A stretch of DNA of 16,261 bases from a virus (taxonomy: Duplodnaviria > Heunggongvirae > Uroviricota > Caudoviricetes): IMG/VR virus record IMGVR_UViG_2547132421_000009; one strand, 5' to 3'. The notes below the pieces were generated by a model. The model was not told where the DNA came from, ran no database searches, and saw only the letters and a program-made list of their open reading frames with translations. Below are positions 1,643 to 13,828 of the stretch, piece after piece; the stretch's first letter is position 1, and every line of letters starts with the position of its first letter. Both the position numbers and the translations under genes were made by a program.

Positions 1643-2905
1643 ATGAGCACTTCAGCACAAAACCAATCAATCGAAAATGTATCTATCCCTGACGTCCTGA
1701 ATGCCGGTATCCCGGCCATTATCCAGAACATCCGGGCCGCGCAACGCCGCGTTAGTTGTGATGACCTCACAGCGCGTTTTTTTGATAATGCGGTTCAGTC
1801 AGCGGAGATGCTTCACGCACAGCTTATTGATGTTTATAACGCAGAAGCTGATAGCCATAACTCCCTGGTAGATGCAGCTGAAAATATGCAGTTGGATCTC
1901 GGTCTGAAGGGTAAAGAAATTGAAGAGCTTCAGCTGCAAATTGAACATTTGAAACGCCAGCAACAGGACGCGATCGACGATGCGACGCATGACGCCAACC
2001 AGCGTGCTGATAATGCCGAACGTATAAGCATTGAGCTGGAAACAAAACTCAATGAAATGACCGCGATGGTTGAACTGCGGAACTCACAGATTTCAACGCT
2101 AAAATCTCAATATAAAGAGATCATGAAACTTGATCCTTTTAACCTTGAGAAACGCTATAACAAAGCTAAAAGCGAGCGACAGGAACTGCGTAAGCAGGTC
2201 GCCGATCTTAACCAACAGCTCAAAAAAACTATTAAAGATGCAAGCGAAGCGCGCGTGGCATTTGCTAATAAAAAAGCAGAGGTTACCGCGCTGGTTAATG
2301 AAAATGCTAAATTTGCGACGCTCAAGAAGGAAATGTATGGCATTACTGAGCGCCGTTTTCCTGCAAGCAAACTCCATCCGACGTTAGGGCAAATCTCATT
2401 CTTCCCGCGCCTCCTGGCTTATGGGATCTCATCGCCTAAAGAGTTCAATAACGAGCGTCCTTATATCGTTTCTAAGCTGGACTTTGCTTATCAGTTCTGC
2501 TGCGACATGGGCTATGCCATTGATATCCGAATCAACGAATGGTTGATGCCAAACTTCCAGCCGTTGGCAATTTTCCGCGAGTTCCAGCCGGAAGGTTGGG
2601 TAGAGTTCTTCCATGAATTGATCTGTAAAGAGATGGAAAGCCGCCGCCCGGAACTGGTCCGTCGAGTTGAGTGGGCGCAAGAGGTTATGTTGGCAGATGC
2701 AGAGCTGCCGTTCGAACCGGAATTTATTGATGATCTGGCAGCTAAAGGGCTGCATACCCTGTTTGATGTGGTTACCCGCCGTCATGAGCAGTTGGTTGTC
2801 GAATTGGGTTTAGAGGAAACAGCGGCAAGAAGACTTCTTGATGTTTGCTATGCACTTAGCGATGCATGGGAAAAAGTGAACGGCGGCACTATTTACGTTC
2901 GCTGA
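1643..2905 (+). CDS. hypothetical protein, 420 aa, N-terminal ~220 aa predicted coiled coil plus C-terminal globular domain
   Basis: Long ORF with heptad-like charged N-terminal half (EELQLQIEHLKRQQQ..., ELRKQVADLNQQLKK...) followed by a strong intrinsic terminator. No family recognised. Confidence 0.6.
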   Translation: MSTSAQNQSIENVSIPDVLNAGIPAIIQNIRAAQRRVSCDDLTARFFDNAVQSAEMLHAQLIDVYNAEADSHNSLVDAAENMQLDLGLKGKEIEELQLQIEHLKRQQQDAIDDATHDANQRADNAERISIELETKLNEMTAMVELRNSQISTLKSQYKEIMKLDPFNLEKRYNKAKSERQELRKQVADLNQQLKKTIKDASEARVAFANKKAEVTALVNENAKFATLKKEMYGITERRFPASKLHPTLGQISFFPRLLAYGISSPKEFNNERPYIVSKLDFAYQFCCDMGYAIDIRINEWLMPNFQPLAIFREFQPEGWVEFFHELICKEMESRRPELVRRVEWAQEVMLADAELPFEPEFIDDLAAKGLHTLFDVVTRRHEQLVVELGLEETAARRLLDVCYALSDAWEKVNGGTIYVR

Positions 2906-2927
2906 TAGTTACAGTGTCACTTTTAAT

Positions 2928-2958
2928 GCTGGTGGAGTGCGCCCACCAGCATTTTTTT
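2928..2958 (+). terminator. Rho-independent terminator (GCTGGTGG-agtgcgc-CCACCAGC followed by ATTTTTTT)
   Basis: 8-bp perfect stem, 7-nt loop and a T7 run, 23 bp after the stop of the 420-aa gene. Confidence 0.7.
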
Positions 2959-2977
2959 CGTCCAATGAGGAGGGCAT

Positions 2978-3484
2978 TTGAGTATTTTCAATAAACACGC
3001 ACACCAGGAACGTCCGTACATTGTCATAGTAGATATTGATGGAACGATATCGGAGGCAACGGAAGACAGGCTGCATTTACTTCCACCGCCTGGCAACGGT
3101 GCATTAACAGAGCACTGGAACGAGTTTAACCTTGCCTGTGACACTGATGCTTCCATCACTCCAGTTATTGATATGGTGCGCCAGTTGTCCAGCATTTACA
3201 CGCTCTGGTTTGTAACCGGGCGCTGTGAGATAGCCAGGGATAAAACACGAGCCTGGTTGCGTAAGCACGTAACAAATGGGGCAGAGCCTTTGCTATCTAT
3301 GCGTCCCGCCACCGATGACAGAAATGACGGTCCAGCAAAGATTGATCTCCTTAAGAAAATTGGTCTAAGCAAAATTGCGTTCGCGCTGGAAGATAAGATT
3401 GAAGTGGCGCGTGTTTTCAGGAGGCACGGCGTGCTTACGTTAATGGTCAGGGAGTATGAAAACGCGCTTCTCCATCAACAATAA
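2978..3484 (+). CDS. HAD-superfamily phosphatase-like protein (168 aa), TTG start
   Basis: GGAGG Shine-Dalgarno 4 nt before TTG. HAD-like motifs: motif I VDIDGT, motif II LWFVTGR, a conserved Lys (WLRKH) and an acidic motif ATDDRNDG. Confidence 0.55.
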   Translation: MSIFNKHAHQERPYIVIVDIDGTISEATEDRLHLLPPPGNGALTEHWNEFNLACDTDASITPVIDMVRQLSSIYTLWFVTGRCEIARDKTRAWLRKHVTNGAEPLLSMRPATDDRNDGPAKIDLLKKIGLSKIAFALEDKIEVARVFRRHGVLTLMVREYENALLHQQ

Positions 3485-6387: not shown

Positions 6388-6444
6388 ACTACAGGTGCCC
6401 ACCAGCACATACAGAAAATGATTGTTTCCACATCAAGGAGATTT

Positions 6445-6467
6445 TAATGTTTCACTGAAACATTAAG
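6445..6467. repeat. 23-bp perfect palindrome TTAATGTTTCA-C-TGAAACATTAA
   Basis: Read directly from the sequence: 11-bp arms around a single centre base, in the intergenic region after the 5147-6387 gene block. Confidence 0.8.
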
Positions 6468-6600
6468 TAAGCCAGTGCATAATTCCATTTTTTACTGACC
6501 TTAAAAGCAAAATCAAAACGATGATGAGGATAATAGCCAGAATCTGGCTAATAATAGGCGCATCTAAAAATGCACTCAGGAACTGAAAAAAAGCGTTCAT
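6463..6600 (-). CDS. small hydrophobic protein, 45 aa (MNAFFQFLSAFLDAPIISQILAIILIIVLILLLRSVKNGIMHWLT)
   Basis: Minus-strand ORF from ATG at 6600..6598 to TAA at 6465..6463; AAGGA 9 nt upstream; one long predicted transmembrane helix. Its 3' end overlaps the 23-bp palindrome. Confidence 0.3.
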   Translation of the reverse strand: MNAFFQFLSAFLDAPIISQILAIILIIVLILLLRSVKNGIMHWLT

Positions 6601-7088
6601 TCAGGTGGTTCCTTGTCAAATGTAAAGGTGCACTTGCTCACGTTGACGTAGAAACCCAACCCCTATATAGTTGGATTCGGTGAATGAAAGTCGTTAACGT
6701 GAGCTTACGGCACATGTTTTCGGAAAAACATCAGGGAACGGCTAATTCCTTGATGCGGGTGGGGTCTGTAATGCAGACCCTATCTATTAACGTCATGATT
6801 GCATCTCAAATTTTCTCCTTATCTTCAATTAATCTACATTCATTTCATCTGTTAGCCACCACAATATGTAGAAAATGGCCCTCTTGCAAGTGCATAACTT
6901 TGTGGATAACTCAGGAAGGAAAAAGTGGCTTTCGCGCACCTTCGGTCAGACAAGGTGTCCGGGAAAGTCAACGCAAAGAAAAAAATTGTTAAAAATAACG
7001 TTTGTTGGAATTGTATATTTTTATCCCCTTCAAACATCTTTTTTTAGAGACAGAAAAACATATCGTAACAACATATATACAGTATTAA

Positions 7089-7319
7089 GAGGCGAGTATT
7101 ATCCTGCGGTGGGAATTCTGGGCGCTGTTAGATTCGACTTTCTCAGCAGGATTACATCGTCAACTTGCGACGTTGCCGTATGACTTTCGTGTAATAGGTG
7201 ACAATGATGCGGCTAGTGAGTTACTTGTGAAGTTTTTCGGAAAAGGTTTTGTGGCCTCGGATCTTGATGAGCTACAGCAACATGAAGTGTCTAATTTGAT
7301 TTTTAGCCATAGCCAATAA
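7089..7319 (+). CDS. candidate protein-coding region (76 codons) lacking an ATG/GTG/TTG start near its 5' end
   Basis: Open frame ...LRWEFWALLDSTFSAGLHRQLATLPYDFRVIGDNDAASELLVKFFGKGFVASDLDELQQHEVSNLIFSHSQ*; strong AAGAGG Shine-Dalgarno (7087-7092) 5 nt before ATT 7098; followed by a terminator-like hairpin at 7336-7357. Confidence 0.3.
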   Translation, partial: EASIILRWEFWALLDSTFSAGLHRQLATLPYDFRVIGDNDAASELLVKFFGKGFVASDLDELQQHEVSNLIFSHSQ

Positions 7320-7335
7320 GCCTCCCTCCTCCATC

Positions 7336-7378
7336 AAGGCCACAATTTGTGACCTTAAACAATTTGTTTTCTGCTTTT
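7336..7378 (+). terminator. terminator-like hairpin AAGGCCACAA-tt-TTGTGACCTT followed by a T-rich tract
   Basis: 10-bp stem with one mismatch, then AAACAATTTGTTTTCTGCTTTTT; located 17 bp after the stop of the 7089-7319 frame. Confidence 0.45.
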
Positions 7379-7445
7379 TCTTATTTGAGGAAATAACGTT
7401 GTTGACAGCTAATAGGCTCGTTGTTGTTATACATGCCTGTATAGA

Positions 7446-7802
7446 TTATGACCGTAAATTATTAGCGGATTTTAAGCCATATTCACCGTTGTAGAAATTA
7501 CTCATGTTCCATTCATTAGGAAGTTCTTTTCTGTCCAATGTATAGTGGCGCACGATATAACGATCTTCATCTTCTTCGATGGACAGGCGGACATAGCCAA
7601 TGTGAATCACCGATACGGGCGGTGTTCGTATTGCATAGATGTCGCGGAGATATACCGGCAGCTCGACAAATGCATCAGGTGCATCTGTGATGCTCGTTTT
7701 TTCACAGTATTCATATAACGCATCGTTGATATCGTTAAGAGATTCATGATCGTATATTTCCAGGTAATTACCGCGATCGCGATGGTACTCGATTTTAGCC
7801 AT
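7446..7802 (-). CDS. hypothetical protein (118 aa)
   Basis: Minus-strand ORF whose ATG (7802) directly abuts the stop of the upstream minus gene (7803-7805); no family recognised. Confidence 0.6.
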   Translation of the reverse strand: MAKIEYHRDRGNYLEIYDHESLNDINDALYEYCEKTSITDAPDAFVELPVYLRDIYAIRTPPVSVIHIGYVRLSIEEDEDRYIVRHYTLDRKELPNEWNMSNFYNGEYGLKSANNLRS

Positions 7803-8387
7803 TCAAAATCCCCTGTTATCGTTTTGCATTTCTCTAATCCGGTTCAGAACTACTTCGTGCTGGACTTGGATAGCGGCTTTTTCGTTTTCAAGCCGGGCAA
7901 TAGACATCTCTAATTCTTTGCTGTACCAGGCGAGCTGGGCCAGGTTCATCCGGTTGTGGTCGAGAGTTGGAGACACTTCGACGCGATCCCTTTCTTCCTG
8001 CTTTAATGAGAAGAGATTCATCTCATCCCTTGAGGAAAATTCAGCAACAATTTCTTGTTGATGATCCGGTCGCTGCGGCATCCTCGCCAGTATAAATGGC
8101 GGTTCTTTTGAAAACATGAATGTCGGTTCAGACCGTGTTTTTACCCAGCTTGCCTGCTGTCTTTCGGCAAGTTCACAGGCTTCATCATAGTTATCTGCCA
8201 AACAAAGCACGGATGGACGGTCCCACGCCCCACCATTCAGACAATAAACTACAATTTTCCCGTCAGGTTGTGTAACCCCATATGGATGGTCCCACTAGGC
8301 GTCCAGCTGAGCTTTAGAGCGTTTCTCGTTAGGAGTGCAGTCAAAATTTTTGGGCAATACAGGATCGAGAGGAATGCGATTAGGCAT
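7803..8387 (-). CDS. hypothetical protein with an in-frame TAG at 8297..8295 (194 codons if read through; 135 aa if started at GTG 8210 as in the ORF track)
   Basis: ATG at 8387..8385 with AAGGA Shine-Dalgarno 8 nt upstream. The 30 codons MPNRIPLDPVLPKNFDCTPNEKRSKAQLDA are followed by TAG in the same frame as WDHPYGVTQPDGKIVVYCLNGGAWDRPSVLCLADNYDE... and the track ORF. Lies divergent from humD, about 140 bp from the LexA box. Confidence 0.5.
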
Positions 8388-8525
8388 AGCTAATTCCTTA
8401 TTAACTGATTGGCAACGAGGTTACGCTGATCCCGCGGTGATGAATAGTAGCAAAGCGCACAAAAATCATCAGCGGTGGTTGATGTACATAACGCGTTTGC
8501 ACCAAAGGTGCTTCTTTAATGTATG

Positions 8526-8541
8526 CTGTATAGATAAACAG
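8526..8541. promoter_or_regulatory. LexA (SOS) box CTGTATAGATAAACAG
   Basis: Exact CTGT-N8-ACAG with an AT-rich spacer, 21 bp upstream of the humD start codon and between the divergent humD and 8387 genes. Confidence 0.75.
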
Positions 8542-8561
8542 TATTTTTGAGGTAAAACGCT

Positions 8562-8951
8562 ATGGGTTTCCCTTCTCCTGCGGCGGATTATGTTGAAAGC
8601 CGAATTTCTCTTGATCAGCAGATAATTAGACATCCATCAGCAACCTACTTCATGCGGGCAGCTGATAGCCATCACCGTGAGGGAATATTGCAGGGTGCTT
8701 TGCTGGTGGTTGATTCTTCGCTTACTCCAGTTGATGGTTCGCTGCTTGTGTGCGCTATGGAGGGTGAATATCGCATAAAGAGATACCGAAAGTATCCGCG
8801 CCAGCACCTGGAGGATTTAAGCACCGGGAAGAAAGAGGCGTTACCAGTGGATGACGATGGATGCACGGGGAGTAATGCTGTGTTTGGTGTGATCACTCAT
8901 GTCATTAATGATGCCCGAAGTGGGGAATTTGATGATTGTCCGGTGATTTAA
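8562..8951 (+). CDS. humD: UmuD'-like SOS mutagenesis protein HumD (129 aa)
   Basis: UmuD/LexA C-terminal-like sequence (…LLVVDSSLTPVDGSLLVCAMEGEYRIKRY…); preceded by a LexA box; synteny humD-phd-doc as in phage P1. Confidence 0.85.
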   Translation: MGFPSPAADYVESRISLDQQIIRHPSATYFMRAADSHHREGILQGALLVVDSSLTPVDGSLLVCAMEGEYRIKRYRKYPRQHLEDLSTGKKEALPVDDDGCTGSNAVFGVITHVINDARSGEFDDCPVI

Positions 8952-13755: not shown

Positions 13756-13828
13756 GATCAATTTACCTGTAAATCCATACAGTTCAATACCTTATCAGGT
13801 CAAATAGTGATCACTTGATCATTTGATC
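13756..13828. promoter_or_regulatory. cluster of four Dam methylation sites (TGATCA hexamers) in the loxP-cre interval
   Basis: GATC at 13756, 13809, 13817 and 13825; the last three are spaced 8 bp apart. P1 cre expression is reported to be influenced by Dam methylation of its promoter region. Confidence 0.6.

Follow-up and report, generated by a model that had tools for sequence, protein, structure and literature searches.

An open frame lacking a start codon in a P1-like phage-plasmid is very probably a decayed chimera of a humD leader and the 3' third of a TOPRIM primase gene

P1-like phage-plasmids have a 'variable region 8' that extends from pmgT to humD (PMC9603915). In phage P1 it holds the hot cassette, a late promoter (LPhot) with a theta-subunit homologue, placed right of an nrd-like DnaA-box element and left of lxr-humD; hot is, as a primase would be, replication-accessory cargo of this region (PMC9603915). 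Small stand-alone TOPRIM primases (DnaG / T7 gp4 type) are known from phages. Examples are gp31 of Kagunavirus RP180 (171 aa), which is annotated as a DNA primase and adjoins a helicase, and the 174-aa TOPRIM-domain protein of P1/D6-like plasmids (WP_283960482, WP_000159954); the corresponding PHROGs are 849 and 17952. Genes of the E. coli infC type start at an ATT that stands at the proper distance from a strong Shine-Dalgarno sequence. Initiation at ATT or ATC in E. coli reaches about 1% or less of the efficiency of ATG.

Here we analyse a locus in a stretch of viral DNA of 16,261 nucleotides (hereafter the window; Caudoviricetes, IMG/VR record IMGVR_UViG_2547132421_000009). An earlier note, made from the letters alone, had proposed a probable unannotated gene with a strong Shine-Dalgarno sequence and a terminator but no canonical start codon. 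We find instead that window positions 7000-7360 are, in all likelihood, a non-functional chimeric relic, a recombination product that combines a humD leader with the 3' third of a primase gene.

Several complete E. coli plasmids, such as NZ_CP070907 and the MRE162 plasmids, match positions 6600-7900 of the window (1.3 kb) with 100% identity; for Salmonella phage SJ46, phage P7 and the P1-like phage MH422554 the figure is 98.4-98.5%. The frame is flanked by P1/P7 genes: pmgT/U/V, upfM/N, upf93.6, an lxr-like gene, humD and phd-doc. From these neighbours and these identities we conclude that the window is a P7/SJ46-type P1-like phage-plasmid. The relic lies in the variable region between pmgV and lxr-humD, which is the slot of the P1 hot cassette, with the same nrd-like element on its left. 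The sequences of the two are unrelated, however: in phage P1 (L005 1908-2213) the hot cassette stands in place of window positions 7009-7819, and the relic is absent. The nrd-like element itself matches the E. coli chromosome at 124 of 130 positions (L007 1208-1337) and is found in all 5426 E. coli genomes; on the chromosome, nrdA lies to its left on the minus strand. Its DnaA-box-like sites are at 6889-6897 and 6901-6909. In pMTY18780-3 (L019) the same segment is the left part of the block upstream of humD and is contiguous with the humD leader. The features of the locus are collected in Table 1.

Table 1. Features of the relic and its surroundings, in window coordinates.
Feature	Position	Strand	Details
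nrdA-upstream / ypaB-like segment	6871-6999	.	Homologous to E. coli chromosome; two DnaA-box-like sites
Decayed humD-type regulatory leader	7000-7102	+	A+T-rich; LexA right half, Shine-Dalgarno sequence, ATT, 'AT' of ATG; match to L019
Further 17-bp deletion, specific to the window's sub-lineage	7033-7034	.	P7, MH422554 and pMTY18780-3 have ATGGTTAGCATTCTATT or similar
Probable recombination junction	7103-7118	+	humD codons 6-7 (CCTGCGG, 7103-7109) into primase codons ~104-108
3' remnant of a TOPRIM (DnaG/T7 gp4-type) primase gene, codons 109-174 and stop	7119-7319	+	tblastn, PHROG, alignments, AlphaFold2 and Foldseek
IS903 insertion site in phage P7	7183-7191	.	ACTTTCGTG duplicated on both sides of the IS, in mid-frame
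Inherited hairpin 3' of primase stop, shared with converging upf93.6	7336-7356	.	C.A mismatch C7340/A7352 on + strand; G.U on minus strand
Resident functional humD of the window	8562-8951		CTGT-N8-ACAG box at 8526-8541

Direct reading bears out the frame as it was described. Its 76 codons (7089-7316) follow a TAA at 7086-7088 and end at the TAA at 7317-7319, with the translation that was quoted. AAGAGG occupies 7087-7092, an in-frame ATT (7098-7100) lies 5 nt past it, and upstream of 7173 the frame has no ATG, GTG or TTG, the earliest canonical start being the TTG at that position. If translated, an example peptide of the frame would read FFGKGFVASDLDELQQHEVSNLIFSHSQ. No opposite-strand ORF of at least 40 aa was found within 7086-7380, and a scan of 6672-7319 returned no promoter-like site on the + strand. 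The Shine-Dalgarno consensus is present as claimed, but its strength is less telling than it looked: with 9 copies in the window where 6.3 are expected, AAGAGG is not over-represented, it is replaced by AAGCGG in MH422554 (98.4% identical over 6600-7900), and it belonged to humD, as described below.

Pfam and NCBIfam scans of the 76-aa frame gave no match, nor did Rfam covariance models over 7000-7400; the sole Rfam match in 6400-7900 is BsrG at 6729-6782, at chance level (15 bits, E 0.8). The PHROGs gave two hits, phrog_17952 (E 6.5e-39) and phrog_849 (E 1.4e-6), both 'DNA primase'. In none of the 20 relic-type records listed does RefSeq/PGAP annotate a feature there. Database ORF calls on it are a 75-aa 'hypothetical protein, partial' (P0001) and a 48-aa protein in some E. 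coli O26:H11 records (P0005).

We can trace the right part of the frame to the tail of a TOPRIM primase gene. A megablast search of complete E. coli genomes with 7060-7420 returns two classes of plasmid match. The first comprises ~87 near-identical copies (at least 95%) without an annotated feature; the second comprises ~64 matches at 80-95% that begin at window 7105-7114 and are covered by a 'toprim domain-containing protein' CDS. In pAVS0968-B (L004), the same locus holds a 174-aa TOPRIM gene at 2689-3213, directly upstream of an upf93.6 homologue, an lxr-like gene and humD. Window 7108-8950 can be aligned without a break to L004 3001-4840 (91% identity), with no similarity left of 7108, and blastn homology to intact genes begins at 7108 in every comparison. 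Queried against the whole window by tblastn, the 174-aa primase matches through residues 109-174 only (7119-7316, 88% identity, E 3.5e-34); its residues 1-100 were not found in the 16 kb. The earlier note was right that the frame is protein-like, as its residues 11-76 match the primase C terminus both in this search and in PHROG 17952. The gene it proposed dissolves: the frame is the last 66 of 174 primase codons joined to a humD leader. Orthologues, to which it had looked for the true N terminus, are 171-174 aa long, and by tblastn their 108 N-terminal residues are nowhere in the window.

The primase gene encodes 174 aa in six plasmid and phage copies, and 457 of 487 phage records with a tblastn match cover at least 80% of the 174-aa query; on these sequence comparisons 174 aa is the full length for the family. 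Just upstream of the remnant, the 'GGNS' of residues 105-108 can be read at 7108-7119 in another frame, tblastn aligning VHNAGGNS with VLSCGGNS at 7096-7119. This difference in frame points to an indel of 1-2 nt relative to the primase parent. The relic thus resembles the plasmid TOPRIM proteins in residues 109-174, in its stop codon, in the hairpin beyond it and in its right-hand neighbours, and differs from TOPRIM primases in that residues 1-108 are missing, there is no start codon, glycine 141 is replaced and foreign 5' DNA is fused on.

A loss on this scale bears on the suggestion that a sequencing or assembly error had removed the start codon of an intact gene, a reading that we consider practically negligible. 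It would account for the missing start codon and nothing else. What is missing amounts to 108 codons and not to a single base; at least six complete E. coli plasmids, assembled independently, have the identical sequence; and ~85 records share it across 80% or more of the 1.3-kb query. The independent plasmid records and the 108-codon loss together refute the error.

PHROGs assign the intact 174-aa protein to 'DNA primase'. Pfam and NCBIfam scans of this protein gave no match (RP180 gp31 gave a sub-threshold dnaG match only), and a PDB sequence search with it gave none. Its AlphaFold2 model, built with 13 homologues, has a pLDDT of 90 and a pTM of 0.84, and Foldseek matches the model to structures of the DnaG catalytic core and of the T7 gp4 primase domain (3b39, 1eqn, 2au3 and 1nui; probability 1.0, E ~4e-6, TM ~0.55-0.60). 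As modelled, the intact protein is a DnaG/T7-type primase core. In that model the remnant runs from strand 107-110 onward and is predicted to be the second half of the TOPRIM fold. The catalytic Glu93, invariant in 13 full-length homologues, is missing from the remnant, as is the N-terminal subdomain. The aspartates of the metal-binding DxD motif are retained (D136, GAC 7200-7202; D138, GAT 7206-7208). Gly141, which belongs to the conserved Ala-Gly after this motif and is also invariant in full-length homologues, is serine in the remnant (AGT 7215-7217).

The left part has a different source. In a distant-mode search of PLSDB, the 104 nt at 7009-7112 match P7-type copies and, at 60-80%, 40 plasmids in which the match lies just upstream of an 'S24 family peptidase' gene. 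The best view of this leader comes from pMTY18780-3, where window 6882-7102 has its counterpart at L019 1332-1586 (76% over 255 nt, E 2e-51) and the humD ATG is at L019 1585. The aligned leader reads ...ACATATACTGTATGTATATACAGCATTAAGAGGCGAGTATTATGGGCTTCCCTTCTCCTGCGGCGGATTATG... in pMTY18780-3 and ...ACAT[-11]ATATACAGTATTAAGAGGCGAGTATTAT[-13]CCTGCGGTGGGAATTCTGGGCG... in the window; around the ATG, TTAAGAGGCGAGTATTATG... in pMTY18780-3 faces TTAAGAGGCGAGTATTAT[-13]CCTGCGG in the window. It follows from this alignment that AAGAGG is the humD Shine-Dalgarno sequence and ATT 7098 the codon before the humD ATG. The 13-nt deletion has taken the G of that ATG and the next 12 nt, leaving 'AT' at 7101-7102, and humD codons 6-7 (CCT GCG) are retained at 7103-7108. 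The 13 nt are present in 3 of 3 intact humD genes compared. Homology to humD stops after codon 7, and the relic contains no S24 peptidase coding sequence.

The regulatory sequences are similarly damaged. Only the right half of the LexA box remains (ATATACAG, ~7075-7082), and CTGT-N8-ACAG does not occur near 7060-7090; the pattern is found at the resident humD. The sole sigma-70-like site in the L019 leader, TTCAAA-17-TATACT, overlaps the LexA box TACTGTATGTATATACAGCA. In the window this site is damaged by a 5-nt deletion (AGTTC) and an 11-nt deletion (ATACTGTATGT), the latter also taking the left half of the LexA box. Judged by consensus scans, the ancestral promoter appears to have been lost. 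Over 7000-7109 the relic thus shares with the pMTY18780-3 leader its A+T-rich DNA, LexA right half, AAGAGG, spacer CGAGT, ATT, 'AT' and CCT GCG, and departs from it in the 13-, 11- and 5-nt deletions (and 17 nt more), which have cost it the ATG, the promoter hexamers and the operator's left half.

Two other sources for the left part were considered and rejected. Degraded primase homology upstream of 7108 amounts to ~50% identity by MAFFT, as against the humD-leader match at E 2e-51. A duplication of the window's own humD leader does not fit either: the resident leader (8500-8561) has a different Shine-Dalgarno region, and the relic leader must therefore come from another allele.

The humD alignment also bears on what the start region is. 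The rare ATT/CTG start that had been considered becomes very unlikely, since the ATT is the codon preceding humD's deleted ATG; it resembles infC-type starts in its distance from a strong Shine-Dalgarno sequence, but it is not a conserved initiator. The proposal of a start codon lost to mutation was correct to the letter: an ATG following ATT 7098 did lose its G in the 13-nt deletion, but that ATG was humD's and not the frame's.

Could the frame nevertheless be used? A functional protein of ~73 aa, initiated through AAGAGG at the near-cognate ATT 7098 or ATC 7101, would make sense of an open frame with a Shine-Dalgarno sequence 5 nt upstream of ATT, of a sequence kept at 97% or more in ~87 E. 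coli plasmids and of the 75-aa record P0001. We regard it as very unlikely. The Shine-Dalgarno sequence and the ATT were inherited from humD, whose real ATG is deleted, and the ancestral promoter and operator are deleted too, with no promoter-like site in their stead. The product would consist of 10 junk residues and the latter half of a TOPRIM fold that lacks the catalytic glutamate and carries G141S. The Shine-Dalgarno sequence is mutated in MH422554, RefSeq/PGAP leaves the frame unannotated, and IS903 splits it in P7, a classical viable phage. That the frame is open in ~87 near-identical E. coli plasmids carries little weight, because the flanking non-coding DNA is equally conserved. Trace translation from ATT or ATC could occur, given the ideal Shine-Dalgarno spacing, if a read-through mRNA exists.

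Even less probable is a 48-aa protein from TTG 7173. This codon is the in-frame canonical alternative, and P0005 is a database call of just that ORF. However, it has no purine-rich Shine-Dalgarno sequence upstream, translation would yield a mere 48-residue fragment of a TOPRIM domain, and the P7 IS903 site lies 10 nt inside. Moreover, the intact genes carry an ATG (Met126) at this position, inside the protein, and we therefore take the TTG as an internal codon.

Substitution counts suggest relaxed constraint on the relic. By the Nei-Gojobori method, pN/pS between the relic and intact genes is 0.4-0.7, a range that rests on small counts; among intact genes with synonymous differences it is 0-0.3, with one pair (L009/L012) at 0.41. 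There are 7 nonsynonymous and 4 synonymous fixed differences between relic and intact genes, and 5 nonsynonymous and 3 synonymous polymorphisms within the relic type, small numbers in both cases. A pN/pS of ~0.5 is compatible with relaxed selection and is not proof of neutrality. The relic allele might also come from a diverged primase allele instead of having decayed in place. One metagenomic contig (L020) has six indels clustered inside the relic; it is a hybrid (OPERA) assembly and weak evidence for further decay.

Where the two parts meet, humD (CCTGCGGCGGATTATG) and the primase gene (AACGCGGGCGGAAATTCGTGG) have the microhomology GCGG(N)GGA(A)TT in common, and the window reads CCTGCGGTGGGAATTCTGG (7103-7121). 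We infer that microhomology-mediated illegitimate recombination joined humD codon ~7 to primase codon ~104-107. The left parent would have been an nrd-like element followed by the LexA-controlled leader, Shine-Dalgarno sequence, ATG and first ~7 codons of a pMTY18780-3-type humD, an umuD-like gene for an S24 peptidase; the right parent would have been a gene for a stand-alone TOPRIM primase of 174 aa, together with its terminator hairpin. The TOPRIM primase gene occupies this locus in other P1/D6-like plasmids, either upstream of upf93.6-lxr-humD or directly upstream of humD. A crossover between GCG and GGC would have given an in-frame 77-aa ORF, and one between GCGGA and AATTC a 14-codon out-of-frame ORF. 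The undeleted fusion (humD codons 3-7 with the primase junction) gave 0 matches in genome_contigs, viral_contigs and metagenome_contigs.

Decay would have followed this fusion. Its steps (deletions, indels and replacements) can be seen in the alignments, while the fusion itself is the step that we infer. They comprise the 13-nt deletion (the G of ATG and 12 nt), the 5- and 11-nt deletions, which took parts of the predicted -35 and -10 hexamers and the LexA box's left half, the 17-nt deletion that came afterwards in the window's sub-lineage, junction indels of 1-2 nt, replacements in the primase tail including G141S, and the mismatch in the + strand hairpin. The frame that is open from 7089 into the primase frame is the net result of the 13-nt deletion and the 1-2-nt indels over ~10 codons. 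Its 76 codons are 66 real primase codons and 10 junction codons that are free of stops by chance.

The hairpin downstream of the stop codon is the one element for which a present role can be argued. The earlier note had seen a terminator-like hairpin at 7336-7357. An inverted repeat is indeed there, with arms at 7336-7344 and 7348-7356 forming 9 bp, but its + strand form contains a C.A mismatch, a terminator scan of both strands did not call it, and the + strand minimum-free-energy fold (-8.3 kcal/mol, z -1.9) leaves it unused. On the + strand a T-rich run begins 6 nt past the stem. In intact relatives such as pAVS0968-B the stem is 10 bp long and free of mismatches (-15.6 kcal/mol, z -4.7).

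It is possible, if on balance doubtful, that the locus has a non-coding role, the hairpin terminating the converging upf93.6-lxr transcript or stabilising its 3' end while the coding-like part hitch-hikes. The hairpin does still fold on the minus strand (-13.4 kcal/mol, z -2.6), and the relic type retains it together with the last primase codons, as do three further variants, truncated or chimeric, whose left breakpoints differ. However, the minus strand has no U-tract after the hairpin, neither strand is called as a terminator, Rfam offers no match, and L009 and L010, which are without the neighbouring block, keep the hairpin in the absence of upf93.6. Such a role is compatible with the chimeric relic. 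We hold with high confidence that the relic makes no functional protein and that what function is left, if any, is that of its hairpin for the converging upf93.6 transcript.

The primase gene has been cut at other points as well. P0003 (99 aa) has a new N terminus before primase residue ~83 and P0004 (113 aa) has a junction at residue ~97; both lie directly upstream of humD. P0007 (107 aa; L013), found in 60 contigs, consists of an unrelated 69-residue N terminus and the last 38 codons of the relic allele. In L013 the primase tail occupies the corresponding slot, and no S24/humD gene is annotated in the stretch retrieved. The primase tail thus has at least four left breakpoints, at residues ~83, 97, 104-109 and 140, and together with the hairpin it behaves as the right border of a cargo slot in which the content to the left is exchanged time and again. 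A speculative and rather improbable extension would make the primase 3' end and hairpin beside lxr/humD a preferred recombination boundary in P1/D6-like phage-plasmids: a right-hand anchor that is reused in cargo swaps and occasionally donates a C terminus to ATG-initiated chimeric ORFs such as P0007. More speculative still is low-level initiation at ATT or ATC in the relic, yielding a half-TOPRIM peptide with some activity, for example interference with a primase or helicase.

For annotation, the chimeric relic is better labelled a pseudogene fragment (humD-leader::primase-3' relic) than a 'hypothetical protein' of 48, 60 or 75 aa. The same concern extends to protein families. PHROG 17952 ('DNA primase', 68 positions) matches the relic over positions 3-68, and this family may have been built largely from such relic fragments.

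The relic implies no new biology, being the kind of product that mosaic evolution ordinarily gives in a known variable region. Its value is as a base-level example of how microhomology joining and deletional decay reshuffle the region from pmgV to humD, and it brings into view the small TOPRIM primase as an alternative cargo to P1 hot at this locus.

The primase gene has been truncated or fused more than once. In the P0007 protein, which is reported from 60 contigs, the last 38 codons of the relic allele (ASELLVNFFGKGFVASDLDELQQHEVSNLIFSHSQ) are joined in frame behind an unrelated 69-residue N-terminus. P0007 is a second-generation chimera, its C-terminus re-used from the relic. Two further proteins with the primase tail, P0003 and P0004, differ in their left breakpoints, and both have humD directly downstream, in D6-like or P1-like elements. 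A copy of the relic itself in an ENA contig (L020) carries six indels, clustered at the equivalent of window positions 7148 to 7345 and with clean flanks; these reflect either hybrid-assembly error or further decay.

Coordinates of the relic-related and neighbouring features
Feature	Location	Details
nrdA-upstream / ypaB-like segment	window 6871-6999	129 bp; similarity to E. coli chromosome
lxr-like / upf94.2 homologue	window 7803-8387, minus strand	stop near 8295-8297
174-aa primase core gene	L004 2689-3213; L009-L012; L008 3001-3525	
P0007 ORF	L013 1289-1612 (pCUVET21-424.2)	107 aa, ATG start
P0004	L016 3001-3342	truncation or fusion of TOPRIM primase gene
P0003	L018 744-1043	truncation or fusion of TOPRIM primase gene
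Relic copy	L020 1380-1900 (ENA ERZ13688035 opera_contig_759)	

The segment to the left of the relic shares 124 of 130 positions (95%) with the nrdA-upstream/ypaB region of the E. coli chromosome, and every one of the 5426 complete E. coli genomes has a match to it. Two DnaA-box-like sites (6889-6897 and 6901-6909) lie within it, along with the nrd -35 region, in an orientation that places nrdA leftwards on the minus strand. In more diverged form this nrd-like element lies upstream of humD in pMTY18780-3 (within L019 1332-1586) and ahead of hot in P1, where the record mentions only a 56-bp version.

Compared with P7, MH422554, SJ46 and most relatives, the window lacks 17 bp at 7033/7034 (ATGGTTAGCATTCTATT). 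The deletion shifts the frames of upf91.6 and upf91.7, two ORFs annotated in P7, which argues against either being a real gene. The lxr-like/upf94.2 homologue, 194 aa in P7, has a premature stop in place of Trp at codon 31 in the window, and for identical plasmids RefSeq shows no more than a 135-aa ORF with a GTG start there (7803-8210). The homologue is most likely a pseudogene, or its product is truncated N-terminally. A second LexA-box-like match (CTGT-N8-ACAG) at 13767-13782 adjoins TGATCA repeats of the kind that characterise the pac site in P1. Two such matches were observed in the window against 0.18 expected; this candidate may be a chance occurrence.

The intact gene encodes a DnaG/T7-type primase core without a zinc finger, found in a subset of P1/D6-like phage-plasmids. 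It occupies the slot held in P1 by hot, the homologue of the Pol III theta subunit. The predicted primase core and hot are both replication-accessory cargo.
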